Below are positions 3,061 to 55,315 of a DNA stretch of 64,000 bases, in pieces (the stretch's first letter is position 1; each line of letters starts with the position of its first letter). The position numbers and the translations under genes were made by a program. This DNA is from an uncultured Chloroflexia bacterium (GTDB lineage Bacteria > Chloroflexota > Anaerolineae > Caldilineales > Caldilineaceae), in the NCBI GenBank assembly GCA_963765875.1, contig CAVXYK010000029.1:111153-175152 (forward strand). The letters are read 5' to 3'. The notes under the pieces were generated by a model. That model made no database searches. It had not been told where the DNA came from and was given only the letters and a program-made list of their open reading frames with translations.

Positions 3061-3573
3061 CTACATGGCGTCCACCGGCTCGGCTTCATGCCCACCGTGG
3101 CAGTCGGTGCAGGTGGGCAGGCCTTCCTTGTCCTCAGCCATCAGATGGCCGGGATTATGAACCTCGCTCGACTCATGGCAGCGCTGGCAATTCTGCGAAA
3201 CATCCGCGGAGAATTCTTGGAGCGTTTCGGCGGGATTGGGCTCATGGGGAAAGCGGTAGCGCTGGGCGCCGCGATGGCAGTCAGTGCAGTAGACGTCCTC
3301 AGCGCTGTGCATACCGTGGACGGACTGATCGAGCGCCATAAGATCTACGCCCAGCGGCATTTCTTCACCGCTAGGCAACGTCATCATGTCCGTTCTGTCA
3401 CCGTGACAGCCGATACAGGCACTGTCCGGCGGAGGTTGGGCAGCCAACACAACGGCCGGCTGCGAGAGTCCGAGTAGTCCGAAAATTGCGATGGCAAATA
3501 GGACTGACACCGTTGCTAGGAGTCGCACACCTAAAATTCGGGCGCGCCTTCGTTGATCCATTGTTCGATCCAT
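3061..3573 (-). CDS. Tetraheme c-type cytochrome segment with N-terminal signal anchor (probably the proximal part of the 1876..3573 gene)
   Basis: TM/signal helix LLATVSVLFAIAIFGLLGL. Motifs CIGCH, CTDCH, CQRCH, CTDCH. Ends at TAG 3061-3063, in the same frame as the downstream decaheme ORF. Confidence 0.75.
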   Translation of the reverse strand: MDRTMDQRRRARILGVRLLATVSVLFAIAIFGLLGLSQPAVVLAAQPPPDSACIGCHGDRTDMMTLPSGEEMPLGVDLMALDQSVHGMHSAEDVYCTDCHRGAQRYRFPHEPNPAETLQEFSADVSQNCQRCHESSEVHNPGHLMAEDKEGLPTCTDCHGGHEAEPVDAM

Positions 3574-9230: not shown

Positions 9231-10349
9231 ATGAAAGCAGACCGTATTTTTGCCATTTTTGCCATTGTCTTGATGGCGACTGTGCTGACGACCGGCTGTG
9301 TGTACATGCTCACACCCGAGGCTGAGATGCCAGCAGATACGGAAGCAGAAACATCTGCCGCTGAAGACTGGATGGCCCCTGAGGGCGCCCTGGTCGCAGC
9401 CAAGGTCGACACCGCACCAACCCTGGACGGCATGGCCGACGAGGCCGTCTGGGCGGATGCAGTCGCGATCAGTGTCGACGTCGAGGATGGCGCCAACATG
9501 GAAACGTCCACCGTCAACATCAAGTCTGTCTACGCCGACGACATGGTCTACTTCCTGGTGAAGTGGGCAGATCCGACCCAGAGCTTCATGCGCAGCCCCT
9601 GGCAGAAGCAAGATGACGGAAGCTGGGTCAAATTGAGCGATCCCGACGACCGCGGTGGCGACAACAATGTTTGGTACGAAGATAAGATGTCCTTCATCTG
9701 GCCCATTGACGAAGGCATTCGTAGCTTCGAGAGCAAGGGCTGTTTCACCGCCTGTCATGATGGCGAAAATGAAGACGCCAAGCCCTACGGCAACAAGTAT
9801 ACCGATGAAGGCATGGGCGACATCTGGCACTGGAAATCGGTGCGCAATGTCAACCAAATTGACGACCAGTATCTCGACTCGACCCAATATTCGCCTGAGA
9901 CCCCTTCTGCCGGACGCCACGGCGATCCCAAGGATGGCGGCGGCTACGTGAACAACGACAACGAAGACAAGTCTGCTCCCATGTGGATGGGCCCGGAAGG
10001 CTATCCTGTAGACGGCAGCCCCGGCTATATCCTGGACTCGGAGAAATTACCCTTCGACGATAGCCTTTTCGTGGCCGGCGACATGATTGGCGGCGTGACT
10101 ACGGCTCCCTTTGAGGGCGACCGCGGCGACATCTCTGCGGGTTGGGTCTATGAAGACGGCATGTGGACAGTCGAGATTGGACGTGCACTCGAGACCGGCT
10201 CCGAGTACGATGTCCAATACGACGACCTGAGCAAGCCCTACTACTTCGGCGTAGCAGTCTTTGACAACGCCCAGGTACGTCACGCCTATCAGTACAAGTC
10301 GGAACGAATTGGTCTTCCAGCCATAGAGCGTATGCTTCACAGTAGATAA
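9231..10349 (+). CDS. Lipoprotein with ethylbenzene-dehydrogenase/DMSO-reductase-type heme-binding (EB_dh-like) domain
   Basis: Lipobox LTTGC. AAKVDTAPTLDGMADEAVWADA..., VYFLVKWADPT, DIWHWKSVR and GCFTACHDG are typical of the EB_dh heme domain as I remember it. Confidence 0.55.
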   Translation: MKADRIFAIFAIVLMATVLTTGCVYMLTPEAEMPADTEAETSAAEDWMAPEGALVAAKVDTAPTLDGMADEAVWADAVAISVDVEDGANMETSTVNIKSVYADDMVYFLVKWADPTQSFMRSPWQKQDDGSWVKLSDPDDRGGDNNVWYEDKMSFIWPIDEGIRSFESKGCFTACHDGENEDAKPYGNKYTDEGMGDIWHWKSVRNVNQIDDQYLDSTQYSPETPSAGRHGDPKDGGGYVNNDNEDKSAPMWMGPEGYPVDGSPGYILDSEKLPFDDSLFVAGDMIGGVTTAPFEGDRGDISAGWVYEDGMWTVEIGRALETGSEYDVQYDDLSKPYYFGVAVFDNAQVRHAYQYKSERIGLPAIERMLHSR

Positions 10350-10390
10350 AACAGATGGGGGCCGAGCGATGCTCGGCCCCCATCTGTTTT
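10348..10390. terminator. Bidirectional rho-independent terminator between convergent genes
   Basis: Perfect 20-bp stem AAAACAGATGGGGGCCGAGC / GCTCGGCCCCCATCTGTTTT with A- and T-tracts on either side. It starts at the stop codon of 9231..10349. Confidence 0.85.
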
Positions 10391-10415
10391 ATCTACTGTG
10401 AATTCAACCACTCAC

Positions 10416-14034: not shown

Positions 14035-14063
14035 TTGGTCGAAGTCGGATTGTGAAATCTGTA

Positions 14064-14313
14064 GGGACAGGTCTGAGACCTGTCCCATGCGTATCAAGCT
14101 AAGCGTTATGTCTAGCGTTGCCGTTGGTGGCGGCAGGGATAAATCCCGCCGCTAACAACGACAAGCCGCCTCAGCGGCTGGAGTGAAGCGCCTGTGGGCG
14201 CTTTTCGCTGTTAGCAGCCGGCTTCAGCCGCTGCTGCACACCGGTTCAAACCGACGACAAATTTATCATAATCCTTAGCTTGATATCTGTGGGACAGGTC
14301 TGAGACCTGTCCC
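14064..14313. repeat. MITE-like structured element (14093..14284) between two copies of the hairpin GGGACAGGTCTGAGACCTGTCCC
   Basis: Terminal inverted repeats ATCAAGCTAAGCGTTATG / CATAATCCTTAGCTTGAT. Second copy in inverted orientation at 40517..40707. Flanking hairpins at 14064..14086 and 14291..14313, with outer GTAG / CTAC. Confidence 0.8.
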
Positions 14314-14328
14314 TACGCGCGTCTACGG

Positions 14329-19877: not shown

Positions 19878-21253
19878 GTTTCAATCCACGCCCCCCGTGA
19901 GGGGGGCGACGTGGTGGCTAGACTCAGGATGTCTAATCCAAAAATGTTTCAATCCACGCCCCCCGTGGGGGGGCGACGCGATTGCCTGCACGTTATGGCC
20001 ACAATGCGAGCCGTTTCAATCCACGCCCCCCGTGAGGGGGGCGACCTTTATCGGCATCGAACTGGATGAGCAACTACACGGTTTCAATCCACGCCCCCGC
20101 GTGAGGGGGCGACGGCACGTTCGGAATTGGTCGACGTGGCCGAAGCCGTTTCAATCCACGCCCCCCGTGGGGGGCGACCAACAGCGCCGAGCCGGGCGGC
20201 GAATCCCGGCAGTTTCAATCCACGCCCCCCGTGAGGGGGCGACTGCTTCTGATCATTGGCCGCAGGCGATGCGAAGAGTTTCAATCCACGCCCCCCGTGG
20301 GGGGGCGACGTGATGACTTGGAGGATAATATGAGCGACGATCTGTTTCAATCCACGCCCCCGTGTGGGGGGCGACTTGCTTCTGATCATCGGCCGCAGGC
20401 GATGCGAAGAGTTTCAATCCACGCCCCCCGTGAGGGGGGCGACGTGGAACGCACCCTCTCCGGTCAGAACTATGCAAGTTTCAATCCACGCCCCCCGCGT
20501 GGGGGCGACCGGTGCCGTTCGTGTTGGCTATGACCATCAGCTATGTTTCAATCCACGCCCCCCGTGGGGGGGCGACCAGACGTGCAGTTTGATGAGCAAA
20601 TGTATCAGAGGCATGTTTCAATCCACGCCCCCGTGAGGGGGCGACTCGGATTGGTTGCCGTGGTCGACCGTGTGCTGGAGTTTCAATCCACGCCCCCCGT
20701 GAGGAGGGCGACATGATATTGCTATGTCCGTTGCCCGCCGTACAAAAGTTTCAATCCACGCCCCCCGTGAGGGGGGCGACGTGGGCGAAGGCTGTCGGCA
20801 TGAGCGCGATTGAGGTTGTTTCAATCCACGCCCCCCGTGAGGGGGCGACGGGATACGTTCAAAGCACTAGCAAGCAACTATATTGTTTCAATCCACGCCC
20901 CCCGTGAGGGGGGCGACGAGGTTGCAATTCTACAGAAACAAATAGCAGCACTGTTTCAATCCACGCCCCCCGTGAGGGGGGCGACCGCACTAAGCGGGAC
21001 AGCTGCACCTGACTGAGCAAGTTTCAATCCACGCCCCCCGTGAGGGGGCGACATTAAATCCACTTGGTCCATAGCACGATGCAACGTTTCAATCCACGCC
21101 CCCCGTGAGGGGGGCGACATAATGATTTTTCAAAATCGGCTCTTTGATTAGTGTTTCAATCCACGCCCCCCGTGAGGGGGGCGACGGCGTACGTTCAAGG
21201 CGAGTATGCATCTGAGGCCGGTTTCAATCCACGCCCCCCGTGAAGGGGGCGAC
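19878..21253 (-). CRISPR. Type I-C CRISPR array, 21 repeats / 20 spacers, transcribed on the minus strand
   Basis: Plus-strand repeat GTTTCAATCCACGCCCCCCGTGAGGGGGGCGAC. The reverse complement ends ...GTGGATTGAAAC, as in I-C repeats. Spacers are 33-38 nt. Repeat copies are 31-33 nt and differ mainly in C/G-run length. cas2 and the leader lie on the 21254 side. Confidence 0.95.
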
Positions 21254-28498: not shown

Positions 28499-31400
28499 TC
28501 AATCAAAGAATATGGCTTCCCCGCCACGACTTTCCGGGAGGACAAGCCCGGTTTGGGGATGGTAATAGTGCTTCATCCAATCTTCGTCTAACACATGGCA
28601 TACATCAGCGATTGTCTGAATGACACCCAGACTCTGCAAACTCTGAAATTCTCGTTCGTAAATGTTGACGGTGTACACCTGCAACTTGCGCAAGGTGCTA
28701 AACGGATAGAGCGTGTGCCGCAATTCCCGCAGCCGAATTTTCGCTTCTTTATCATACGGAATCACCACCGACACCGTATCGTCATCAATCAACTTGAAGT
28801 TTTCGGCCGCTGTTTTGAAATCGAAATCCAAGCTTCGGGAACCTTTGTCGAGAAAACTTAGAATTCTCCTGGCATCGAAACTGGCTTTATCATGCAGGGT
28901 GTAAAGACGGTCGTAGTAGGCCTCAATTGCCGCAATCGTCGTTGGATCCGTACTGAAATCACGCAGGGTACTCTTGGCCACAGCACCCGTCTGTGCGATG
29001 AAGATCGGCGTGCGCTTGATGAAGTCGGTCTTGGGGTCGAACACGAGCATTTCCCCGATCGATTGCTTACCTTCCCGATTGATTCGCCCTGCCGCCTGGA
29101 TGATTGAGTCCAATCCCGCCAGCGCACGATAGCCGACCGGGAAATCCACGTCGATCCCGGCTTCCATAACCTGCGTCGAGACGACGCGGCAGACGTCCCC
29201 GTCTTCAAGCCGTTGGCGGATTTCCGTCAGGATTACCTTGCGGTGTACCGGACACATCAAGGTTGAGAGGTGAAATCGCCCTTCCCCGACCAGTCCATCA
29301 AACAGCCCCTTGGCATGGCGACGGGTGTTGACAATACACAAAACCTGGCGCTGCGCTTCAAGCTTCTCCAGTAACTCTTGATCGGGCAGAGTTCCCAGTT
29401 CCTTCACCTGTACACGGCGATAGAAATCGAACAACTGTTGGGGATTGGGAGCCAGTTCCGTAAACTGCGTACTGTCTGGGAAGAATCGCTGCAAAGATGG
29501 TTGCGTGGCTGTGCAAAAGACTGTGCTGACTCCGTAATTATGCACCAATTCCTGAACAGCCGATAGGCTGGGTGTCATGTATTCTCGCGGCAGCGTTTGA
29601 GCCTCATCGAAAATGATCACGCTCTTGGCGATGTTGTGCAGTTTGCGCGCCCGTGATTTCTTGCTGGCAAACAGGGACTCGAAGAACTGCACATTGGTCG
29701 TAACCACGATAGGGATGTCCCAGTTCTCGGCAGCCAATCTCAGCTTCTCATGTACGTCGTTGGTCTCATCGTCTGATGTATGTCGCAGCCCCTCCCAATC
29801 AAAATTGGAATGGTGCTCCAAGATGTTTTCCTCTCCCAGTATGCCCAATGACTCCCTAAACACCGCAGCGTTTTGTTCAATGATGCTGGTAAAGGGAATG
29901 ACATAGATGACTCGCTTCAACCCGTGAGCAATGGCGTGATTGAGTGCAAAAGCCATTGAGGCCAGTGTCTTGCCGCCACCAGTCGGCACGGTCAAGGTGA
30001 AAAAGCCCGGATCTTGGTTGGCTTTAGCCCGGCAGGCGTGCAGGGTTTCGGTACGCTTGCGGTTGATGGGCGTTTGCGGATCCTCGAAACGCTGCAAATA
30101 TCGGTTGAATTGCTCAGCCAATGCCTCGATACTGGCATACTGACCGCGGGGCTTTTCGACCTCTTGCATATACCGTTCAGTGTCCAGCCAGTCGGCATCC
30201 ACCAAGGTAGAGAACAACATGCGCGTCAAGAAGGATATTGAAAAGCCTGGATATTCACGATTGACTTTTATGTGCAGGGGCTGGAATTGTAGTTGGTTGG
30301 CATCAAGTTCCGTGGCATAGGCGCTGTAGTCTTCCAGTTGTTTCTTCTCCCGCCGCGCCAGAAGGGTTCCATCCGCTTCCGTATCACCAAGGCTGCCATA
30401 GTCGGGCAGACCAGAATGGTGCCCAGCGATGCAGTAGGACAGTAACTCGGCATAGGTGTTATCGGGCTTTGCGGGGAATAGGCTGACTATTTCCCGTGCG
30501 CCGGCAGTAGCATGATCGACTCGCTTGTTCGAGCCGCGCAACCGATCCTGAAAAGCCTGCGAGTATTTGCCAATGTCGTGCAAAATCCCAGCTACTCGTG
30601 CCAGTTCGGACACACCGGCATCTCGCCCCAGCTCAAAAGCCAGATCGCCAGTTTGGAATAAGTGGTCTCTCAGCAACTGCCACTCTGATTCATCGATGCC
30701 GGGCTTCGAGTGGGCATAGTATCGCTCGTCGAAGGTTTTGAACGCTGAAACAGCGTACAACTCAGCCAGCTGTCGTGCTTCTCGAATCAGCGACTCCCGC
30801 AATTTTACCGGCTCCAACACTTCGACTTTGCTGCCCCACCCGCGTATCCACGGCAACATCTCCTGCGGTTCGGCTACCCAAGCCCGCCAGAGCAGACTGC
30901 CGTCCGCTTCCAACACGGTCTGCTGCGACTGATGCCAGCGCGTCTCCTCCACCCGCTTGGCCACGCGTGGATGGAACTTGAGCACCACCTCCACCGGCTC
31001 GGCCTCCGTGTACCAGATGCCCCAGGCGTTAGCGAGCTTGGCACGCGGGTCAAAATCATCAGGAATCTCATAGCTGTCTCGGAGAATCTCGGCCGAGCGC
31101 AGCCGCTCCACCTTGAAAGTGCGCACAGCGCTTGGCGGCTCACGCCAGCCGATGACGTGTGCAGTCTGACCGACGGCATACGGTTCGATGAAGTAGGGCG
31201 AAAAGGTGTACTCAAAGACCCGCCCGTCTTCCATCTGGTGACTCACCTTCACCTTGCGCCCCACGGACCACGCCTCGGTCAGCTTCTGCAGCACGTCCAG
31301 GTAGACCGGATCACGATAGGCCGCAGCCTCGTCCATCATTTCGGCAGAACGCAGCAGATGTCGGCTCACGTTGTTGTCCAGACGCCGCAAGGCCATGCCC

Positions 31401-31729
31401 AGCTTGCGTAGCGACGACGCAGCATGGGGGTTCTGTTTGTCCGTACGCGTTGCCAGCAGACGGGTCGCTAAATGGATGGCCATGATTTCATGTAGGCTGA
31501 AGGACGCTTTGGTCAGGTCGGCCGAGCGGTCCAACTTGAGCTTATTGCCGTCTAGATCATCTTCGTAGATGCTGGGCGGCAGATGATCCTTGTCCAGATA
31601 GCGACCAATGGTAGATCGGTTCACATTCAGGCGTCGGGCGATCTCGGCCCGAGTCATGCCCTCCGGGTGCGCCCAGAGCAGTTCCTCGATCTGCAACAGG
31701 CGTTGTGATTTCTCTTGTGCCCTGTTCAT
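28499..31729 (-). CDS. cas3: Cas3 HD nuclease/SF2 helicase with N-terminal HTH-WYL-WCX regulator-like extension (about 330 aa)
   Basis: Single 1076-codon ORF. N-terminus MTRAEIARRLNVNRSTIGRYL (HTH), VGRKVKVSHQMEDGRVFEYTFSPYFIEPYAVGQTAHVIGW...RTFKVERL (WYL-like). Then the HD domain (AGILHDIGKYSQAFQ, CIAGHHSGLPD), Walker A VPTGGGKT, DEAQ and QAAGRINREG. Confidence 0.9.
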   Translation of the reverse strand: MNRAQEKSQRLLQIEELLWAHPEGMTRAEIARRLNVNRSTIGRYLDKDHLPPSIYEDDLDGNKLKLDRSADLTKASFSLHEIMAIHLATRLLATRTDKQNPHAASSLRKLGMALRRLDNNVSRHLLRSAEMMDEAAAYRDPVYLDVLQKLTEAWSVGRKVKVSHQMEDGRVFEYTFSPYFIEPYAVGQTAHVIGWREPPSAVRTFKVERLRSAEILRDSYEIPDDFDPRAKLANAWGIWYTEAEPVEVVLKFHPRVAKRVEETRWHQSQQTVLEADGSLLWRAWVAEPQEMLPWIRGWGSKVEVLEPVKLRESLIREARQLAELYAVSAFKTFDERYYAHSKPGIDESEWQLLRDHLFQTGDLAFELGRDAGVSELARVAGILHDIGKYSQAFQDRLRGSNKRVDHATAGAREIVSLFPAKPDNTYAELLSYCIAGHHSGLPDYGSLGDTEADGTLLARREKKQLEDYSAYATELDANQLQFQPLHIKVNREYPGFSISFLTRMLFSTLVDADWLDTERYMQEVEKPRGQYASIEALAEQFNRYLQRFEDPQTPINRKRTETLHACRAKANQDPGFFTLTVPTGGGKTLASMAFALNHAIAHGLKRVIYVIPFTSIIEQNAAVFRESLGILGEENILEHHSNFDWEGLRHTSDDETNDVHEKLRLAAENWDIPIVVTTNVQFFESLFASKKSRARKLHNIAKSVIIFDEAQTLPREYMTPSLSAVQELVHNYGVSTVFCTATQPSLQRFFPDSTQFTELAPNPQQLFDFYRRVQVKELGTLPDQELLEKLEAQRQVLCIVNTRRHAKGLFDGLVGEGRFHLSTLMCPVHRKVILTEIRQRLEDGDVCRVVSTQVMEAGIDVDFPVGYRALAGLDSIIQAAGRINREGKQSIGEMLVFDPKTDFIKRTPIFIAQTGAVAKSTLRDFSTDPTTIAAIEAYYDRLYTLHDKASFDARRILSFLDKGSRSLDFDFKTAAENFKLIDDDTVSVVIPYDKEAKIRLRELRHTLYPFSTLRKLQVYTVNIYEREFQSLQSLGVIQTIADVCHVLDEDWMKHYYHPQTGLVLPESRGGEAIFFD

Positions 31730-32779: not shown

Positions 32780-33169
32780 ATGGCACGATATCCCCTAAAC
32801 CTACCTCAGCAGCTCAAACAGGATGCAGAGACCTGGGCTGGGAAACAGGGCATCTCCCTCAACAAATTTATCCTCTGGGCGACAGCAGAGAAAGTCGGTT
32901 CGCTGAACCAACAGCTTGACGATCCTGCATTTCCGCAGATCACCTACCGCCGAGGCGCAAGCGGTATTCCCACGCCGATTCTGAGAGGCACAGGGCTACG
33001 TGTGCAAGCGGTGGCCATCGCCCATGAACGGTGGGGCATGCAGCCTGCCGAAATCGCTGACGAGTACGGGCTTACGCAACGCCAGATCAAAGAAGCGCTG
33101 GCCTTCTTTGACGCGCATCGCGCAGAAATCGAAATGCACATAGCCGGAGAGCAGCGGCTGAGCGGCTGA
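32780..33169 (+). CDS. Putative antitoxin: RHH/HicB-like N-terminus fused to a DUF433-like domain
   Basis: YPLNLPQQLKQDAETWAGKQGISLNKFILWATAEKV (RHH-like), then RRGASGIPTPILRGTGLRVQAVAIAHERWGMQPAEIADEYGLTQRQIKEALAFF (DUF433-like). Confidence 0.55.
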   Translation: MARYPLNLPQQLKQDAETWAGKQGISLNKFILWATAEKVGSLNQQLDDPAFPQITYRRGASGIPTPILRGTGLRVQAVAIAHERWGMQPAEIADEYGLTQRQIKEALAFFDAHRAEIEMHIAGEQRLSG

Positions 33170-33181
33170 ACGGTTGAACAG

Positions 33182-33535
33182 ATGGCAATCCCCCGGCTAC
33201 ACCTCGATGCAGACGTTTCCTATCGCACCCTGCACATGGCCTTGAATGAACGAGGCCATGATGTAACGCGCACGCCATGTGAGTGGATGCCCATGGATGC
33301 CGATGATGAACAGCAGTTGCTGGAGGCCGGCGCACGTGGGCGTTGTATCATGACGTTCAACATCGGCGATTTCATGCGCCTGGCGAAGACACACCCTGAC
33401 CATGGCGGCATCGTGCTGGCTCAGCAGGTGGACTGGTCGCTCGCATCGCTAATTTCTGCGCTGGACAACTTGTTGACACAGACTGACGCTGCGGATTGGC
33501 CCGGTCAAGTGCGTTGGCTCACCGAGTGGAAATAG
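33182..33535 (+). CDS. DUF5615-like (PIN-like) putative toxin partner of DUF433
   Basis: 117 aa, 12 nt downstream of the DUF433-like gene. HLDADVSYRTL...MTFNIGDF pattern. Family from memory only. Confidence 0.45.
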   Translation: MAIPRLHLDADVSYRTLHMALNERGHDVTRTPCEWMPMDADDEQQLLEAGARGRCIMTFNIGDFMRLAKTHPDHGGIVLAQQVDWSLASLISALDNLLTQTDAADWPGQVRWLTEWK

Positions 33536-33544
33536 AGCTTCCTC

Positions 33545-34855
33545 CTACCCCAACACCCAAGGCCCCACCATATTCCCATCCTCATCAAAAGCCAGCGGCA
33601 CTTCGACGGCAATGGTCAAGCGCGGGTGAGCTTCAATGGTCGCGCGCAGGCTGGGGCTGGCATAGAAGCGATCCAGGGTCAGTGTGTCGCGGATGAAGAC
33701 CATGGCGGCCTCGTCCTGGGGCACGGCGCAGCAGCGCAGCGAGACGTTGAGCGCCTGCCGGTCGTTGGGCATCGTAAGGGGCAGCGCAGCCCGGTACATG
33801 CCGAAGATGCCCGAGGTGACGGCGTTCATGTAGGTGGCCTGCCAGTCGATCTTCTCGGCCACGCGTGCCGTGGTCACGTTGGCCAGGCCCAGGCCCGAGG
33901 CATTGCCGTGGGTCTCTTCGGTGAAGTCAAGCACCGTGATCACGGCCACATCGACCTTGCCGAAGGCCTCAGGCTGGCGCGGGATCATCAGGCGTGAGAC
34001 GATGTTGGTGTCCATGCCCGTGCCGCTGATGTTCTTGCCAAGGTCGCGCACGACCAGGACGTCGACGGCGTCGAAGGGCAGCCCGGCCAGCAGATCCTTG
34101 GCCTCCTGCAAGAGGTCCGCCTCGGGTTGCAGGCCGACCTGCTTGTCGGTCAGGCCGACGATCTTGGCGGTGTCGTCATAGGCGTTCTCGATGGGACAGA
34201 TGGCTCCTGCGAAATTGCTGTGGGTCTCGTAGACTCGGGCCGCCGGCGCCAGATATTTCTGGAAGTTGGCCCCGCCGCCGGAGTGCATCTGCGCGGCGCC
34301 GAACTGCTTGCCCAGGCCGATAACACACATTTTCGACGGGCCACTCTCCAGGTGCGAGCGGAAGTCGGTGTGGGGTTTGATGCGGCTGACCAGAATGGCG
34401 TGGTCTGCGGCCATCGAGTCCTTGCCCTGGTAGAGGGGCGGCCCGTTCTCGATGCGGCCGATCTGCTCGACCTCCATGGTGGCGCGCACCTCTGCGCCCA
34501 CGCTCTCTTCGGTGACGCCCAGGAAGGCGAGCATCTCCTTTTGGCCTTCGGCCGTGGCCCCGCCATGGCTGCCCATGGCCGGCATCACGAAGGGCTTCAT
34601 GCCCGCCGCGCGCAGCCCGTCCACCGTCGCCTTGACAATGGCCGGCAGGTTGGCAATGCCCCGGCTGCCCGCGCCCACAGCCACTGTATCGCCAGGGGTC
34701 ATGCGATCGAGAATGCCGCTTTCATTCAGCGCGGCGATTGTCGCTGCCGCGATGTCGTTCACCTTGGGCGCATCAAAACGCTGCTCCACTTCGAGTAGCG
34801 TGGACGGTAAATTGGCGGGGAAGTCGAGTTGGGAAATTTGGGATAGTAGGTTCAT
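33545..34855 (-). CDS. LarA-like / DUF2088-type domain protein (function unknown)
   Basis: ATG 34855 preceded by AGGAG. MNLLSQISQLDF...VAVGAGSRGIANLPAIV...AMGSHGGATAEGQ. The track fuses it into a 739-aa ORF through repeats. Family call is weak. Confidence 0.45.
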   Translation of the reverse strand: MNLLSQISQLDFPANLPSTLLEVEQRFDAPKVNDIAAATIAALNESGILDRMTPGDTVAVGAGSRGIANLPAIVKATVDGLRAAGMKPFVMPAMGSHGGATAEGQKEMLAFLGVTEESVGAEVRATMEVEQIGRIENGPPLYQGKDSMAADHAILVSRIKPHTDFRSHLESGPSKMCVIGLGKQFGAAQMHSGGGANFQKYLAPAARVYETHSNFAGAICPIENAYDDTAKIVGLTDKQVGLQPEADLLQEAKDLLAGLPFDAVDVLVVRDLGKNISGTGMDTNIVSRLMIPRQPEAFGKVDVAVITVLDFTEETHGNASGLGLANVTTARVAEKIDWQATYMNAVTSGIFGMYRAALPLTMPNDRQALNVSLRCCAVPQDEAAMVFIRDTLTLDRFYASPSLRATIEAHPRLTIAVEVPLAFDEDGNMVGPWVLG

Positions 34856-35356
34856 GGGATCTCCTGTTAGCTGCTGCGTGCTACTTGCTGCTTGCTGCGT
34901 GATTGGTTTTGGTGTCTTGAAGTGGTTGGCGAGATACGAAACTGGTTCTTCGCGGATGTTGTGTTTGTGTTGGTCGGACAGCATGGCTAGGAGCAGGCGA
35001 ATGATTCGGGTTAGGTTGTCACAACGGTGTTCAACGATGGCTGTACCCAGAATATGTCGTGCCCCGAAATACCAGGTGCGTGCTTCTCGGGCTGAACCGA
35101 GTGAATATTCGTAGAATCGAGCCCGGTCCTTCCCTGAGTTCTTGCCGTAGCCTTCGGCAATGTTGGCACCGATAGAACCGATAGCCCGGTAGAGCTGATC
35201 GGAAAGCGATCGAGTTCTCGTATCTCGGCTCAATTTGCTCACATCCGGCCAACTGATGTCGAGGGCAAAGAGTGCAAGTCGGTAAACCTGCAACCGCCAG
35301 AGCGGATCGCCGGTCAAATACGTTGGAACGGAAAGTTCCCACTCGGAGTAGTTCAT
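34856..35356 (-). CDS. Four-helix-bundle protein (23S rRNA intervening-sequence protein / Avd-like family), no in-frame stop before the next gene
   Basis: ATG 35356 preceded by GGAGGTG. LWRLQVYRLALFALDISW...SLSDQLYRAIGSIGANIAEGYGK...RFYEYSLGSAREARTWY. Reads through the left inverted repeat into the 33545..34855 frame. Confidence 0.7.
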
Positions 35357-35785
35357 CGCACCTCCAATCAGGGATGTGCTGCTTGCTGCTTGCTGCTTGC
35401 TGCTTGCTGCTTGCTGCTTGCTGCTTGCTGCTTGCTGCTTGCTGCTTGCTGCTTGCTGCTTGCTGCTTGCTGCTTGCTGCTTGCTGCTTGCTGCTTGCTG
35501 CTTGCTGCTTGCTGCTTGCTGCTTGCTGCTTGCTGCTTGCTGCTTGCTGCTTGCTGCTTGCTGCTTGCTGCTTGCTGCTTGCTGCTTGCTGCTTGCTGCT
35601 TGCTGCTTGCTGCTTGCTGCTTGCTGCTTGCTGCTTGCTGCTTGCTGCTTGTCTGCTGTGCTGCTTGCTGCTTGCTGCTTCTCGAATGAGGATAAGCCAC
35701 AAGGAGGACTTGTCAACCCCGAGACTCTCCAAATGCGGCAGCCCAATCTGAGCGGAAACCTCACGCAGCAAGCAGCACGCAGCAG
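34871..35785. repeat. Inverted-repeat-bounded intergenic cassette A (carries the four-helix-bundle gene and heptamer array)
   Basis: CTGCTGCGTGCTACTTGCTGCTTGCTGCGTGA at 34871..34902 and TCACGCAGCAAGCAGCACGCAGCAG at 35761..35785. Fills the gap from 1 nt after the 35787.. gene stop to 4 nt before the RBS of the 34855 gene. Confidence 0.85.
35377..35680. repeat. Heptanucleotide tandem repeat (TGCTGCT; AAGCAGC on the minus strand), about 39 perfect plus about 4 degenerate copies
   Basis: Perfect 7-nt periodicity at 35377..35650. All frames translate to QQAASSK / LLAACCL, which produces several artefactual ORFs. Confidence 0.95.
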
Positions 35786-35786
35786 T

Positions 35787-36452
35787 CTACCCCTTCACCC
35801 TCTCCACAATCTCCCGCAACAACCCCTCAAAATTCTCCTGCGCCACCTCGAATGCCTCGTTGCTGATCACAAGCGGCGCGCCAAAGACGACGATCTCTGC
35901 GCCCATGTCCAGGGTATCGATGGCTTGCTCGATGCTGAGACCGCCTACGGCCTGGACCGGGATGTCGACGGCGGCGAGGATGTCGGCCAGGTCATCGAGG
36001 GGGCTGAGGCCGGGGATCATATTGCGCTCGTCAAAGCCTGTGTGCACGATGATGTAGTCGACGCCCAGATCCTGGGCTTGCTTGGCGCGGCCGGGCTTGT
36101 CCGGGCAGAGCATGACGTCGGCCATGACCTTGCCGCCATACTGCTTGGCCATCTTGACCTGCTCGATGATGGAGGCGTCGTGGGCCACACCCATGACGAC
36201 CACCATGTCGGCCCCGGCCTTGAACATCATCTCGGCCTCCAGTCCGGCCCCGTCCATGGTCTTGAGATCAGCCACGATGGGCACGTCGGGAAACTCGGCG
36301 CGCATAACCTCGACACAGCGCAGCCCCTCGGCCAAGATGAGCGGCGTACCCGCTTCCAGCCAGTCCACGCCGGCCCTCACCGCAGCCCGCGCCAGGTCCA
36401 TGGCCTCATCAATAGAGGTCACGTCGATAGATACTTGAATAATTGGTTTCAT
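35787..36452 (-). CDS. OMP-decarboxylase-family enzyme (3-hexulose-6-phosphate synthase / KGPDC-like)
   Basis: MKPIIQVSIDVTSIDEAMDLA...DWLEAGTPLI...IVADLKTMDGAGLEAEMMFKAGADMV... Confidence 0.7.
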   Translation of the reverse strand: MKPIIQVSIDVTSIDEAMDLARAAVRAGVDWLEAGTPLILAEGLRCVEVMRAEFPDVPIVADLKTMDGAGLEAEMMFKAGADMVVVMGVAHDASIIEQVKMAKQYGGKVMADVMLCPDKPGRAKQAQDLGVDYIIVHTGFDERNMIPGLSPLDDLADILAAVDIPVQAVGGLSIEQAIDTLDMGAEIVVFGAPLVISNEAFEVAQENFEGLLREIVERVKG

Positions 36453-36513
36453 GAGGAATCCTTTTTGTGTAGGTAGAGTAGATGGGATTGGTGGTCAGGG
36501 TTTGTGAAACTGG

Positions 36514-36653
36514 CTGCTGCGTGCTGCTTGCTGCGTGACAATTGGCATGAACAACAGTCGAATCGATTGGAAACTGGTTGACAAGCCAAAACGATTCCAA
36601 GGACGAATTCGGATACTGCCCGAAGACCTCACGCAGCAAGCAGCACGCAGCAG
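36514..36653. repeat. Inverted-repeat-bounded intergenic cassette B (empty, about 90-nt core)
   Basis: CTGCTGCGTGCTGCTTGCTGCGTGA (36514..36538) and TCACGCAGCAAGCAGCACGCAGCAG (36629..36653), a perfect 25-nt inverted repeat. Confidence 0.9.
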
Positions 36654-36660
36654 ATCCCTA

Positions 36661-37699
36661 CTACCTAATCACCAAAACCGACTTCACATTCTCCCCCTCC
36701 TCCATCTTGGAGAAGGCTTCTTCCCATTGGTCCAGCCCATAGACGCCGCCGATGACCGCGTCCATGTTGAGCTTGCCGTCGGCCATGAGGCGCAGGACGC
36801 GCTCCCAGGTGGCGTAGGTGTGGCTGAAACTGCCCTGCAGCGTGACCGCTTTTTGCACCAGCGGGTCCAGGCTGAAGTCCATCGGCTGTGGTCCCCAGCC
36901 GATCTTGGTGATGCGCCCGCCGGCCCGCACCATCTCCATGGACTGTTGCAGCGCCCGAGAGACGCCGGTGCAGTCGACCACCAGGTCGGCCCCGAAGCCG
37001 TCGCCCAGATCCTGAATCAACTCCATGGGATCCTGGCGCTGGATATTGATGGCGTAGTCCGCGCCCAATTCGGCGGCGACCTCCAGCCGACGCTCGTCGA
37101 CATCCGTACCGAGCACGATGATGGGCCCGGCCCCGCGCAGCTTGGCTACCTGCAAGGCCATGATGCCGATGGGCCCCGGCCCCTGGATGACGGTCATGTC
37201 GCCCGGCTTGATCTCGGTCTTCTCCACCAGCGCGTTCATGGCCACGCAGACCGGTTCGGTGAGGGCGGCATGCTCAAAGGGCACATGCTCGGGGATGCGA
37301 TGCAGAATCTGCGGACGTGCGGCCACGTACTCGGTCATGGATGCCGCCGATCAGCGCGCCGTAGCCCAGCCGGTGCGGGCAGAGATTGTACTCGCCACTG
37401 AGGCAATAGGTACACTGGCCGCAGACTGTGGCCGCAGTCTCGCAGGCCACCCGGTCGCCTACTGAAAAGCCGGTCACGTTGGCCCCGACATCGACCACGG
37501 TCGCCGAAAATTCATGGCCGAGCACCAGCGGTAAGTTGATCTTCCAGCTCTGATGCTCGCGCCACATGTGTACATCGCTGCCGCAGACGCCCACCGCCTG
37601 CACCTTCAACAACACCTGGTCCGGCGACATCACCGGTTCAGCCACCTCCCGCACCTCCACGGCACGGTCTTCGTATGCGTATTTGACGACGGCTTGCAT
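36661..37699 (-). CDS. Zn-dependent medium-chain alcohol/polyol dehydrogenase, one apparent frameshift near 37335
   Basis: GVCGSDVHMW, LGHEFSATVVDVG and CGQCTYCLSGEYNLC (ORF 37274..37699) continue as MTEYVAARPQ...VIQGPGPIGIMALQ (ORF 36661..37338). Confidence 0.8.
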
Positions 37700-37734
37700 G
37701 GGATAGATCCTTGGCTAATATTGGATGATTTGTT

Positions 37735-37866
37735 GTGCTGCTTGCTGCGTGATTTTTTTTAGACCTATGCTCAACGCGATTGGGAACTTGTTGATTGAAC
37801 TAACTGATCCCAATCGCGAATCCGGATACTATCCGGAAAACTCACGCAGCAAGAAGCACGCAGCAG
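37735..37866. repeat. Inverted-repeat-bounded intergenic cassette C (empty; left repeat truncated to 18 nt)
   Basis: GTGCTGCTTGCTGCGTGA (37735..37752) and TCACGCAGCAAGAAGCACGCAGCAG (37842..37866). The core is homologous to cassette B (CGATTGGRAACTKGTTGA, CGAATYCGGATACT). Confidence 0.85.
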
Positions 37867-37889: not shown

Positions 37890-38777
37890 TCAAAAATACT
37901 TGTCCCTCATCCCCTTCAAAAAGTCCACCGACTCCTTCATCTCGCCCATGCCGTTCATGCCGTCTTCGATGCTGACCCAGCCGTCGTAGCCGGCGTCGGC
38001 GAGGAGGGAGAAGATGGTATCGTAGTCGTTGAGACCCTGGCCGGTGATGCCATGCTGGAGCATGTCGGGATAGCCGATCATGCCGTCGGCCTGGAGCACG
38101 TCGTCCAGGGTGGAGCCTTCGGTCAGGTAGCGGTCGCTGGCGTGAACGCTGACGACGCGGTCGACCACGGCGCGCAGCAACGCGATGGGATCATCGCCGG
38201 CCACGATGGAGTTGGAGGGATCGTACTGGACGCCGAAATAGTCACGCTCGGGGATGGCGTCAAGCACCTTGAGGAAGACATCCATACGCTGGGCGAACTC
38301 GGGATAGAGCCAGTGTCCATCTTTGTAGTGGTTCTCCAGACCAAGAATGATGTCATACTCACGCGCCACCGGCAGCAATTGCTCGATGCACTCCTTGACC
38401 CAGGCCACGCCTTGTTCGACGCTGACCTCAGGATAGCGCTGGCCGGTGAGCACGCGGCAGATGGCCTTTGGCCCACCCATGCGCCGGGTGACCGCGATCA
38501 TCTCAGCCTCGTGGTCGACGGCCTGTTTGCGGGCATCGGCGTCCGGGTTGGTGAAGTCGGGTGAGCAGCACATCATGGGCATGGCGTAGCCAGCTCCGTG
38601 GATGGCATCGGCCACTGAATCGACATAGTCGTCGTCAATCTGCCAGAGAAAGCCTTCGTACATCTCCAGCCCCTCTGCGCCCAATGGCTCAGCCATCTTG
38701 ATCCAATCAAAGACGCTCATAGTGCGGTCATAGGAGATGGCGTCGAGATAGCACTTGGGAAATGCGGATATTTTCAT
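37890..38777 (-). CDS. Sugar phosphate isomerase/epimerase (xylose isomerase-like TIM barrel)
   Basis: ATG 38777 (MKISAFPKCYLD...). LGLENHY, VQYDPSN, VSIEDG motifs. The track start at 38882 is unlikely. Confidence 0.7.
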   Translation of the reverse strand: MKISAFPKCYLDAISYDRTMSVFDWIKMAEPLGAEGLEMYEGFLWQIDDDYVDSVADAIHGAGYAMPMMCCSPDFTNPDADARKQAVDHEAEMIAVTRRMGGPKAICRVLTGQRYPEVSVEQGVAWVKECIEQLLPVAREYDIILGLENHYKDGHWLYPEFAQRMDVFLKVLDAIPERDYFGVQYDPSNSIVAGDDPIALLRAVVDRVVSVHASDRYLTEGSTLDDVLQADGMIGYPDMLQHGITGQGLNDYDTIFSLLADAGYDGWVSIEDGMNGMGEMKESVDFLKGMRDKYF

Positions 38778-40791: not shown

Positions 40792-43700
40792 CATGAACAA
40801 CCCGCCAACCCATCTGCATGTGCATTCGCACTTCAGCCTATTGTCAGCCACACCCTCGATCCAATCGCTATTGCGACCGCGCCGTGGCCGATAGTCTGAC
40901 CCATCTGGCGCTCACAGACACTAGTTCACTCTATGGGGCAGTCCAGTTTTCCAATGCTTGCCAGGCAGTCGGCATCCAGCCCATCATCGGTATGTCGACC
41001 CGCGTTCAATCGCTTGACACCGAAGAGGTGTCAGAGCCCGGTCGCATGCTCGTGCTTCTGGCCACCGGCCAAGCCGGCTACCGCTCACTCTGCCGGCTCT
41101 CTTCGCAATTGCAGGCCAGGCCAGACCGCGAAGAAAGGATGGTTCGAGGACTCGACTGGGCGACATTGAAGGAAAATGCGGACGGGATCATCTGTCTTTC
41201 GGGTGGACGACAGGGCTGGATCGAATGCTGTCTGCGCGCCGGAGAAAACATGGGCGCTGCACGATATGCGGGTCAACTCGGCGGCATATTCGGCAGCCGG
41301 GCCTACCTCTCACTCGAACTGCATGGCGAGAAAGACCACTCGACGGCCCGTGCCATCATGGCGCTGGGCAATCGCTTTGGACTACGTACGGTCGCTGTGC
41401 AACCGGTCTACACAATGCTGCCATCGGACCGCGCTCACCTGCGACTGCTGCGCGCCATCGACCGCAACTGTCCGCTGACCGAACTGCCGGCCGACGCCAT
41501 GCCGGACGCCGGACTGGACTCCAGACTGGACGGAGATGAAACGTCCATAGGACTGCACTGGCTCTCACCAGCCGAGCTCACCCAGCGCTTCGACGCTTTC
41601 CCCGATGCGCTGGCCGCCGTCGAAGAGATTACGTCGCTCTGCCAACCGGCCCTGCCCGACAGCAATCCCATCTGGCCCAGGCCTGCCTTGCCATCTGACA
41701 TCCCAGCCGACACACCTGTGGAAGAGGCGTTGTCCACCCTCGCAGCCGCCGGTCTAGCAGATCGATACGCGCGGTAGAGACGCAACATCTTGCGTCTCCG
41801 AAACGCCGTCAGACAGGTCGGCCACAGATAGTGCAGCCGACGGAGACGCAAGATGTTGCGTCTCCGAAACGCCGTCAGACAGGTCGGCCACAGATAGTGC
41901 AGCCGACGGAGACGCAACATCTTGCGTCTCCGAAACGCCGTCAGACAGGTCGGCCACAGATAGTGCAGCCGACGGAGACGCAGGATGTTGCGTCTCCGAA
42001 ACACCGTCAGACAGGTCGACCACAGATAGTGCAGACGACGGAGACGCAAGATGTTGCGTCTCCGAAACACCGTCAGACAGGTCGACCACAGATAGTGCAG
42101 ACGATGGAGACGCAAGATGTTGCGTCTCCGAAACACCGTCAGACAGGTCGACCACAGATAGTGCAGCCGACGGAGACGCAAGATATTACGTCTCTACCGA
42201 TGTGACGGACCGACTGACGCGTGAACTAGCCGTCATCAACGAACATGGATTTGCACCCCTATTCCTGGTCGTGGCGGATGTCGTGCGCCATGCACGCGAG
42301 CAGGGAATCCCGGTCAGTACACGCGGCAGCGTGGCCAATTCGCTGGTCGCCTACTGCACCGGCATCACCACCGTCGATCCCATCGAGCACGATCTACTCT
42401 TCGAACGTTTCTTGAATCCGGCGCGCATCACGCCGCCCGACATCGATCTGGATTTTTGCAGCCGTCGCAGAGACGAGGTGCTCAACTATGTGCGCGAGAC
42501 CTACGGCGCTGACCATGTTGCCCTGGTCGCAACCATCAGCACCATGCGCCCCAAGTCCGCAGTGCGCGAGACGGGCAAGGCCTATGGCCTCGACAATGCC
42601 GCGATTTCACGCCTGACACGCCTGCTTCCCGGCGGCTGGCATCCGGACCCTCGCCGGCGAGACCGGCGCAAGTTGCCCGACATTCTGGAACAGGTCGCCG
42701 ATCCGACCGATCGGCAGGTGCTGAGCGACGCCTACGCCATCGTCGGCACGCCCCACCACCTGAGCATCCATCCTGGCGGCGTGGTCATCACGCCAGGGCC
42801 CCTTACAGACCGCTTGCCCTTGCAGTGGACGGCCAAGGGATTCCTCATCACCCAGTTTGATCACAACGATGTAGAGCAGATCGGCCTGCCCAAGATCGAC
42901 CTGCTGGGCATCCGCGCCCTGACGGTGCTGGCCGATGCCACTGCTTTGGTGCGCAAACACCACGACGCCGGTTTCACGCTTGATCAGATCGATGAAGGCG
43001 ATCCTGAGACGGAGCAGATGCTGAGTCAGGGCGATACTGTGGGCGTCTTCCAATGCGAGTCGACGGGGGCCAGACGGACGCTGCGCCAGCTCAAGGTACG
43101 CAGCGTCCGTGACCTGGCTGTGGCCAACGCCTTTTTCAAGCCGGGTCCGGCCACGGGCGGCATGGCCCAGGCCTTCATTCGTCGCTATCGTGGCGAAGAG
43201 CCGGTCCACTACCTGCATGAAACCTTGACGCCGATTCTGAATCCGACCAAGGGCGTGCTGCTCTTCCAGGAACAGATTTTGCGTGTGGCCAGGGAGATTG
43301 CCGGATTGAGTTGGGAAGAGGCCGACCATCTGCGCCGGGGCATGAGCAAATTCCAGACTGCTGAGATGAAAGCCATGCGTGAGCGTTTTGTGGCCGGTTG
43401 TGTGCAAGCGAAGCCGGACGGCCCCGGCTTCTCACCGACCCAGGCAACGACGCTTTGGGAGCAGGTCGAGGCCTTCGCCGGTTACGGCTTCAACCAGGGG
43501 CACGCCACGGCCTATGCCGATGTGAGCTATCGATCGGCCTACATCAAGGCACACTGGCCGGCCGAGTTCTGCGCAGCGCGTCCAGTCGATTGGGGCGGTT
43601 TTCATCACCAGGCGATCTACATTGCCGAAGCAAAACGGCTGGGCATCCCGGTGCGACCGCCTCACGTCAATCAGAGCGGTCGCAAGTTCACCTTGACACG

Positions 43701-44370: not shown

Positions 44371-44449
44371 TGTAGGTGCGGTTTGGAACCGCACAATTCT
44401 CATGACGTTCAGAGGTAGCCATTGATCGTGCGGTTGCAAACCGCACCTA
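44371..44449. repeat. REPIN-like inverted hairpin pair with GTAG/CTAC ends
   Basis: GTAGGTGCGGTTTGGAACCGCAC (44371..44393), a 33-nt spacer, then GTGCGGTTGCAAACCGCACCTAC (44427..44449), just after the dnaE stop. Confidence 0.8.
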
Positions 44450-44539
44450 CGCCATCCCCGTGTTATTTCGTAAAATCCCAATATCCCGGACTCTGAAATG
44501 TCAAATGAACCTGGTCAAGCCAGAAAGCCCCAGGCGACC

Positions 44540-55074: not shown

Positions 55075-55315
55075 CGTCCGCTGCAAAAAGGGATCTTGAC
55101 AAGAATTCACACAGATTATCACGAATTTTCTCTCTGGGGCGACGACACAATTCGTAAAAATACGTGACCATTCGTGACTCCACTGCAAAAAGGGATTGGA
55201 CACGAATTAACACAAATCTGCACGAATTCTCCCTCTGGCGCCACACTTCATTTCGTGTAAATTCGTGACAATTCGTGTCCAGAAAAGGCTTTTTGCAGGA
55301 GAGTCATTCGTATCA
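55075..55315. repeat. Two tandem ~105-bp units plus a terminal inverted repeat between convergent GT39 genes
   Basis: CTGCAAAAAGGGAT..GACA.GAATT.ACACA.AT....CACGAATT.TC.CTCTGG.G... occurs twice. Closing GGCTTTTTGCAG is inverted to the CTGCAAAAAG heads. Rich in ATTCGTG words. Confidence 0.7.

Follow-up and report, generated by a model that had tools for sequence, protein, structure and literature searches.

Why should every internal gap of one bacterial operon be filled by a cassette that opens and closes with much the same inverted repeat? The question is raised by a 64,000-nucleotide stretch of DNA (hereafter the window) from an uncultured Chloroflexia bacterium of the Caldilineaceae (assembly GCA_963765875.1, contig CAVXYK010000029.1). 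In it, three such cassettes, called A, B and C, occupy all three internal gaps of a predicted four-gene transcription unit on the minus strand, as a sequence-only reading of the window had claimed. The genes are numbered here from 1 to 4 in the direction of the predicted transcript, so that C lies between genes 1 and 2, B between genes 2 and 3, and A between genes 3 and 4. We consider it probable that the three cassettes form one foldback family, made up of mRNA-borne counterparts of the intervening sequences (IVSs) that carry an open reading frame (ORF) in 23S rRNA and of ORF-less miniatures of these, and that RNase III cuts the operon transcript at them.

Anatomy of the three cassettes

Searching the window with the 25-mer CTGCTGCGTGCTGCTTGCTGCGTGA and its reverse complement at up to three mismatches gave six matches, all between 34871 and 37866, against none in 100 shuffles of the window. 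The arms of A, B and C are built from three or four tandem heptamers of the type GCTGCKT, and the units they bound measure 130 to 900 nt. One identical 25-nt pair had been said to bound all three cassettes. This was true of both arms of B and of the right arm of A, but the right arm of C departs from the 25-mer at one position, the left arm of C extends over only about 20 nt, and the left arm of A is a 32-nt variant with one heptamer more. No further copy of the arm family was found across the 64-kb window outside the operon, and arms of the related ACTGCGT type were absent from it.

Cassettes B and C are 130 to 140 nt long and contain no ORF. In B (36514-36653, minus strand, as are all cassette features below), the arms match at 25 of 25 positions around a 90-nt loop. 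Its 5' arm, an exact 25-mer (36629-36653), begins 7 nt past the stop codon of gene 2; it is followed by the core (36539-36628) and by the exact reverse complement as 3' arm (36514-36538), with the next start codon 61 nt downstream. In C (37735-37866), the 5' arm (37842-37866, CTGCTGCGTGCTTCTTGCTGCGTGA in the mRNA sense) begins 23 nt past the stop codon of gene 1. The core (37755-37841) contains the inner hairpins CCGGAUAGUAUCCGG and CGAUUGGGA..UCCCAAUCG followed by a run of eight A, and the short 3' arm (37735-37754), which is full-length in the orthologues of two relatives (loci L017 and L159), lies 35 nt ahead of the next start codon. The two cores were aligned as paralogues, in agreement with the homology noted before; they are 66% identical in the window, and the mean column identity over orthologues and paralogues is 81%.

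Both miniatures were predicted to fold far more stably than expected, B at -73 kcal/mol (z = -8.73) and C at -58 kcal/mol (z = -7.75), and most copies of the family gave stems of 24-32 bp with z between -6.5 and -9. In the consensus structure of B and C, a 24-bp stem joins the termini and encloses two hairpins; over five sequences, three of its pairs are compensatory. In the minimum-free-energy fold of the whole of A, the 3' arm (34871-34902) pairs with the outer 5' arm (35761-35785). A search of the window against Rfam at the gathering score gave no match, and below that threshold only noise from miRNA-precursor hairpins on B and C.

Cassette A (34871-35785) is the full-length unit. It starts 1 nt past the TAG of gene 3 (35787-36452) and ends about 5 nt ahead of the AGGAG of gene 4 (33545-34855), close to the edges given by the sequence-only reading, which had placed the second at 4 nt. 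On the coding strand it consists of an outer 5' arm, an 80-nt leader core, a 43-copy heptamer array, a good ribosome-binding site with the gene for a four-helix-bundle (4HB) protein, and a 3' arm. The outer 5' arm (35761-35785) is an exact 25-mer. The leader core (35681-35760) looks like a miniature element, its first 28 nt or so closely resembling, by eye, the start of a miniature at locus L005, and holds a sigma-70-like TTGACA-16-TATCCT at 35716-35689. The array (35377-35680), which had not been mentioned before, reads (AAGCAGC)n in the mRNA sense (TRF period 7, 43.1 copies, 98% matches); its unit is of the 3'-arm type, although it stands in the 5' leader of the 4HB gene. At the same position there are few units in L017 and L159; arrays expanded to a comparable degree occur in L158 and L161.

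The 4HB gene (34903-35356; ATG at 35356, GGAGG at 35365-35361) is intact. Its product scored 58.7 bits with PF05635 (cutoff 33.8) and 65.4 bits with TIGR02436 (cutoff 24), which bears out its proposed membership of the family first seen in 23S rRNA IVSs. It also matched PDB entry 2gsc (E = 1.5e-3). More than 4800 homologues were found at E < 1e-5, the best of them 60-70% identical and spread across phyla. The protein had no match in the PADLOC (defence) and PHROGs (phage) libraries, tblastn against plasmids gave none either, and no transposase was found inside or beside the cassette among called genes and profile matches.

The 32-nt 3' arm of A (34871-34902, four heptamers) is read through as the final part of the 4HB ORF, which meets no stop codon up to the ATG at 34855, and the frame thus continues into gene 4, which encodes a LarA-like isomerase. 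This fused frame spans 33545-35356 in the window and 4343-6157 in L159, where a 604-aa ORF was called. In both, the arm-to-ATG distance is 48 nt (34856-34902 in the window). In L017 (7940-7995) the 3' arm has one heptamer fewer (41 nt) and the 4HB frame stops at a TGA overlapping the ATG. From this difference in heptamer number it appears that heptamer slippage toggles between fused and separate reading frames.

The operon and the arm family in related genomes

We compared the operon with its counterparts in four close relatives (L017, L054, L159 and L160) and in two more distant loci, L161, from a Caldilineaceae metagenome-assembled genome (MAG), and L162. Unrelated spacers in orthologous operons would have spoken against the cassettes as elements; L017, L054 and L159 were found to hold these cassettes in the corresponding positions. 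In L159, C and B are present and A has an intact 4HB gene. L017 also has C and B, and the 4HB gene in its A is recognisable with a disrupted frame. In L054, the 3' arm of C is seen at the edge of the locus, B is present, and A has kept its arms, of the ACTGCGT type, around a decayed ORF. In L160, C is present with a degenerate 3' arm, B is deleted except for about 11-13 nt of its 5' arm, and A is reduced to a decayed 4HB remnant without arms. The closest relative of L160 is L054 (96.6% nucleotide identity in gene 3, a 3-hexulose-6-phosphate-synthase-like (HPS) gene), in which B is intact. Empty sites had also been sought. In L162 (75% HPS nucleotide identity) the gaps measure 46 and 55 nt and contain no element; these are empty sites. 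Across L017, L054, L159, L160 and L162, the same gaps thus occur with an element in place, with a decayed one, after its deletion and empty, and the same cassettes recur in at least five independent assemblies.

In L161, both upstream gaps (2170-2348 and 3377-3501) hold hairpin elements made of other heptamers, with GATGCGTGA-type units and about 13 downstream TCACGNN units, and with GACACAGAT-type arms, which points to repeated colonisation or to element turnover there. The leader core of cassette A in L159 is a flipped core of the B/C type, 76% identical to B of the same locus once reverse-complemented. This suggests that the three cassettes are paralogues that spread locally within the operon, and local spread would explain why three copies lie within 3 kb in a family with about 20 exact-arm loci per related genome. 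As part of the explanation favoured here, and at the same probable strength, the entry of the elements into the operon would predate the split of the Chloroflexia species sampled, and they would have been copied locally from gap to gap.

The 25-mer family is not unique to this locus. Its 18-nt arm core was found at 43 loci in three related Chloroflexia MAGs (22 and 20 in two of them and 1 in the third); other taxa gave 25 single matches, against a rough chance expectation of about 35. The related MAGs yielded about 30 paired elements, each 100-200 nt long. All of them are intergenic, as had been asked of the pairs, and most begin within about 25 nt of the upstream stop codon. They are small non-coding units with terminal inverted repeats in many dispersed copies, and in this sense resemble miniature inverted-repeat transposable elements. 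The family is present or absent at orthologous sites and lies in unrelated contexts, as a mobile element does; no fresh insertion was observed.

Seven further orthologous site pairs were compared between two MAGs. The element or its arms were present in both members of all pairs but one, in a comparison biased to occupied sites because both loci had to hold the exact 18-mer. The flanking genes are about 75-85% identical, while the interiors are just 14-58% identical. In at least two pairs both arms have jointly changed their heptamer type, from GCTGCKT to ACTGCGT or the reverse, and wherever a stem was detected the arms are about 80-100% complementary within each genome. Something maintains the stem.

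At the 43 loci, tblastn and a subfamily HMM detected no 4HB genes other than the orthologues of that in cassette A. No parent insertion sequence with a transposase sharing the arms was found, the 4HB gene being the only coding partner with these arms. There was no rRNA operon at the 36 arm-bearing loci scanned and no rRNA in the window, hence no insertion in an rRNA helix, and no link to rRNA IVSs of the same genomes through shared arms was found at those 36 loci. Gene calls in the compared loci are heuristic.

Two observations on the placement of single family members may be added. In two related MAGs (L050, 2112-2254 with 2326-2428, and L032, 4903-5005), a member precedes a ZMP/ZTP riboswitch by about 70 nt, so that elements also occur in 5' leader regions, beyond the gaps within operons. 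In L053 (4980-5100), 5' arms of the ACTGCGT and then the GCTGCTT type stand in tandem before a single core, which suggests nested or recombined elements.

PF05635 genes, known elements and rival explanations

To see the gene outside this family, 80 more distant metagenomic PF05635 loci were surveyed, of which 71 could be evaluated, with 48 neighbouring genes as controls; at each, the strongest inverted repeat shared by the upstream region and the 3' end was scored, and it counted when it exceeded shuffles by z > 4. Such arms bracket 47 of the 71 PF05635 genes and none of the 48 controls. Each arm is a tandem array, its period usually 6 or 7, and the unit differs from clade to clade (CCGTCG, CCGTTG, TAGAAGN, GGAACAN, AATAGGC). 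The median distance is 32 nt from the end of the upstream arm to the start codon and 13 nt from the stop codon to the downstream arm. In 23 of 27 cases the gene upstream runs in the same direction, and the arm often abuts its stop codon.

Close homologues of the 4HB protein (62-68% identical) were found with CGTG-type heptamer arms in unrelated operons. In L069 (a Caldilineaceae MAG) and L155 (a metagenome contig), a 4HB gene with arms GTGCTGCGTGA / TCACGCAGCAC lies upstream of the same LarA-like gene; in L069 the LarA-like protein is 71% and the 4HB protein 66% identical to that of the window, and the upstream gene is unrelated. The gene stands upstream of a DsbD-like gene in L072 (a verrucomicrobial MAG) and L073 (a JGI metagenome contig), with about 28 copies of GTGATGC and their complement and with GTAAAAC-type units. 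Three further metagenome contigs carry it in a methyltransferase operon (L156, GTGAGGC units), between LysZ-like and LysJ-like genes of a lysine-biosynthesis operon (L157, CGTACTG units), and inside a Wadjet operon (L158). The last is a composite like A of the window, with a 5' array, a 3'-type array, the 4HB gene and a 3' array. That arms and gene travel together across unrelated operons and phyla argues that the elements move or have moved. The suggestion of a mobile IVS-like element thus gained strong comparative support, from the survey, from the homologues in unrelated operons and from the series of filled to empty gaps.

These data also lead us to a wider proposal, which we put forward tentatively, as a serious possibility short of a probable one. 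PF05635 genes across bacteria may be the cargo of unrecognised, phyla-spanning foldback cassettes with clade-specific arrays of 6-7-nt units, which would insert past stop codons in operons, include the rRNA IVSs as a special case, leave ORF-less miniatures in neighbouring gaps and have no recognisable transposase. The Avd-like 4HB protein would perhaps be a mobility or maintenance factor, acting through the repeat arrays or the excised hairpin RNA.

Several known systems resemble the cassettes. In the 23S rRNA of Coxiella, an IVS with a 28-bp stem around an S23p ORF is excised by RNase III without re-ligation; the ORF is decaying, and the origin and function of the IVS are still called unclear (PMC4990558). 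Like the ORF-carrying rRNA IVSs of Leptospira, Coxiella and Brucella, cassette A has complementary ends that pair into a long stem, and a PF05635 ORF occupies the loop. The cassettes differ in that they lie between the protein-coding genes of an mRNA operon, whereas IVSs lie in rRNA helix 9, 25 or 45, in that their arms are expanding and contracting heptamer arrays, and in that ORF-less miniatures with the same arms exist at other intergenic sites.

The Correia (CREE, NEMIS) and ERIC/IRU elements are intergenic, about 100-160 nt long and many-copy, with terminal inverted repeats, are often transcribed and can create promoters (PMC2649163, PMC2229807); in Neisseria mRNAs, the hairpins of Correia/CREE elements are sites at which RNase III binds and cuts (PMC2649163). 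The miniatures share with them the size of about 100-160 nt, the intergenic position, the inverted repeats and the many copies. Correia repeats, in contrast, are about 26 bp of unique sequence without a coding partner, whereas the cassettes have tandem-repeat arms, a full-length partner carrying the 4HB gene, and no transposase. Correia elements are also known to duplicate a TA target.

The sequence-only reading knew of no description of elements such as A, B and C tiling an mRNA operon. Co-transcribed inverted-repeat elements cut by RNase III are in fact already known, as Correia/CREE in Neisseria (PMC2649163), and so are ORF-bearing IVSs in rRNA. The claim stood for the rest: in the limited collection of literature consulted, we found no description of an IVS-type gene-in-hairpin inside mRNA operons, of tandem 6-7-mer arms, of ORF-less miniatures or of a PF05635-wide association.

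As to the arms, cyanobacterial STRR sequences are intergenic tandem heptamer repeats. The TAACTGA repeats of Beggiatoaceae are likewise intergenic tandem heptamers, with lineage-specific units (PMC4679880). Both are described as direct arrays, while the cassettes are paired inverted arrays around a gene or a core. The foldback (FB) transposons of Drosophila have long terminal inverted repeats made of short tandem repeats around a centre that is variable or absent; being eukaryotic and unrelated in sequence, they offer an architectural analogy only. As to the protein, the accessory protein Avd of diversity-generating retroelements has the same fold as PF05635 and is homologous to it (PMC10053308). 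The likeness to these retroelements lies in the 4HB fold and offers no more than a hint about mechanism; no gene for a reverse transcriptase was noticed near the cassettes among called genes, and no search was made for a template/variable repeat pair.

The mechanism that we favour would run as follows. The full-length form, arms around a PF05635 gene, sits in an mRNA spacer just past a stop codon, and B, C and the leader of A are ORF-less miniature paralogues. A terminator-like site (38919-38888) and promoter-like sites (38854-38779) precede gene 1, and the terminator/promoter scan found no terminator or strong promoter between the operon genes, which places A, B and C within one predicted transcription unit. 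Since nothing of this kind separates the genes, we infer that the elements are co-transcribed in a polycistronic mRNA, where each would form a near-perfect stem of 24-32 bp. Such stems are likely cleaved by RNase III, to judge from the known systems, and the operon transcript would then fall into separately stable pieces, with the 4HB message released from A as a stem-capped fragment. Because the 3' arm of A is at once the tail of the 4HB ORF and a close neighbour (about 5 nt) of the next ribosome-binding site, access to the LarA-like gene would be governed by translation of the 4HB gene or by a cut in the stem, either of which would free that site. Since entry, interiors have evolved fast while both arms stayed complementary, and the elements have turned over as they decayed, were deleted, gained array copies or had their cores inverted. 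The parts of this explanation that have direct support are the anatomy, the family membership, the age, the co-evolution of the arms, the series from filled to empty gaps and the PF05635 association.

The main rival takes the cassettes for foldback DNA that is purely selfish or neutral and plays no part in the RNA, and in which complementarity would come from hairpin- or cruciform-templated repair, slippage, arm recombination or a requirement of the mobilising machinery. It draws on several results, some of which also weigh against our explanation. Arm mismatches show no strand asymmetry, with G.U to A.C ratios on the transcribed strand of 71:69 in 50 4HB cassettes and 16:15 in 22 miniatures, and maintenance of the arms at the DNA level explains these data equally well. 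The inner GGTCTCG motif is oriented either way relative to the flanking genes (about 6 to 6 among confident cases); taken with the flipped leader core of L159, this makes core orientation uninformative and is consistent with cores that flip between arms. The heptamer arrays expand and contract, from few units in L017 and L159 to 43 in the window and long arrays in L158 and L161, elements decay and are deleted, and the L162 operon exists without any cassette. Further points count against our explanation on their own account. Mobility is deduced from distribution, no transposase having been found and no target-site duplication being evident in the flanks, where heptamer slippage blurs the arm ends and the empty L162 site is too diverged for a base-level alignment; nor were near-identical dispersed copies seen, so that there is no sign of recent transposition. 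The MAGs are long-read assemblies with visible frameshifts, and their heptamer copy numbers may be inexact. Co-transcription, RNase III cleavage, an effect on expression and the mode of mobility are the parts that we infer. On the other side, persistence at the same site while flanking genes have diverged to 75-85% identity, and near-perfect arms around randomised interiors, would be unusual for neutral remnants; a Caldilineaceae relative, L161, has different hairpin elements in the same operon gaps; and it is established knowledge that stems of this length, once transcribed, hardly escape RNase III. We regard purely selfish DNA as unlikely, while giving it more weight than any of the other rivals.

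A doubtful addition, compatible with the explanation that we prefer, is that the heptamer arrays are binding sites of the 4HB protein, which would regulate its own cassette or its copying, the miniatures being mobilised or regulated in trans. Avd is a pentamer that binds nucleic acids, and its homology to PF05635 invites such a role. The repeat unit tracks the 4HB clade, in that close homologues from different phyla all have CGTG-type units and distant PF05635 members have others, and the arms hug the ORF at the short median distances found in the survey. This fits poorly with dozens of miniatures in related MAGs where the cassette-A orthologue is the sole 4HB gene detected in 43 loci, with two heptamer types within one genome, and with the arms of L054, kept despite a decayed 4HB gene. 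It is improbable, in our view, that the stems are host-selected, uncleaved mRNA stabilisers that block 3'-to-5' exonucleases and so set cistron levels. REP/BIME sequences act in this manner: they are single, imperfect intergenic palindromes of 20-40 nt past stop codons in operons, affect mRNA decay, and occur in hundreds of copies with a RAYT (Y1) transposase. The position of the elements directly past stop codons of co-directional genes, their long and stable stems and the different hairpin elements in the same gaps of L161 would suit stabilisers. Near-perfect duplexes of 24-32 bp, however, far exceed what an exonuclease block needs and are typical RNase III substrates, and a protein-coding cargo spread across phyla points to an element rather than to a signal evolved by the host. 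REP/BIME themselves were rejected, since the unit is of 130-900 nt with a 25-nt-arm hairpin and no RAYT-type gene was found in the window around the operon, to which the search was limited; neither such a gene nor that size class was seen at the cassettes. Hairpins between co-directional genes could also be intrinsic terminators or attenuators, integron attC sites or assembly artefacts, all of which we hold to be very improbable. The terminator scan found none at A, B or C and no T-run follows any of the stems; the operon is a coherent, conserved catabolic one, with no attC-like core by eye (no pattern search was made) and no integrase noticed near it; and the recurrence in at least five independent assemblies argues against an artefact.

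Operon genes, neighbourhood and meaning

Profile matches backed the four minus-strand genes at the positions first reported. Gene 1 (37890-38777) encodes a xylose-isomerase-like TIM-barrel sugar-phosphate isomerase/epimerase (PF01261, E = 4.7e-34). Gene 2 (36661-37699) encodes a Zn-dependent alcohol/polyol dehydrogenase (ADH), with PF08240 and PF00107 spread over two ORFs. Gene 3 (35787-36452), the HPS-like gene, belongs to the OMP-decarboxylase family (PF00215, E = 1.2e-25; TIGR03128, E = 8.8e-50, under its cutoff). Gene 4 (33545-34855) encodes a nickel-pincer-cofactor LarA-like isomerase of group 22 (NF052515, 456 bits against a cutoff of 400). The gene order of this catabolic operon is the same in several lineages. 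The ADH gene of the window is split by a 1-nt insertion near 37340 (37330-37350), reading GGCGGCATCCATGACC where L054 and L017 have GGCGGCTCCATGACC; the gene has either become a pseudogene recently or been misread in sequencing. Split ADH or TIM-barrel genes also occur in L160 and L161, which makes long-read indel errors likely.

The window contains other repeats and hairpins. A 66-nt-period array of 3.5 copies at 20211-20443 resembles a short CRISPR array, and a minus-strand ORF of 1076 aa at 28499-31729 resembles, by eye, an HD nuclease/helicase of the Cas3 type that has an additional DNA-binding region at its N-terminus. A 66-bp tandem repeat (41777-42194; 6.3 copies, 95% identity), with a 26-nt palindrome CGGAGACGCAAGATGTTGCGTCTCCG in each unit, adjoins the ORF at 40818-41777. 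At 14061-14316 lies an unrelated inverted-repeat element whose 50-nt arms, 86% complementary and 156 nt apart, each contain the palindrome GGGACAGGTCTGAGACCTGTCCC. There is a perfect 32-nt hairpin with a 3-nt loop at 10336-10402, a hairpin with 26-nt arms at 44372-44450, and a 101-bp unit rich in ACGAATT motifs that is present twice at 55077-55277. On the plus strand, a DUF433/DUF5615 gene pair (32780-33535) converges with the last gene of the operon.

For the Chloroflexota, the cassettes explain recurrent odd spacers in operons, and the heptamer copy number can switch the 4HB protein between a separate frame and a fusion with the downstream enzyme. The question of the origin and function of the 23S rRNA IVSs dates from 1990, and to our knowledge the thousands of genes annotated as 'four helix bundle protein' have no assigned role outside diversity-generating retroelements. 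There is a substantial chance that the present finding defines a broader, unrecognised class of elements. A gene-in-hairpin unit within ordinary operons of several phyla would place the rRNA IVSs in a much larger element family.

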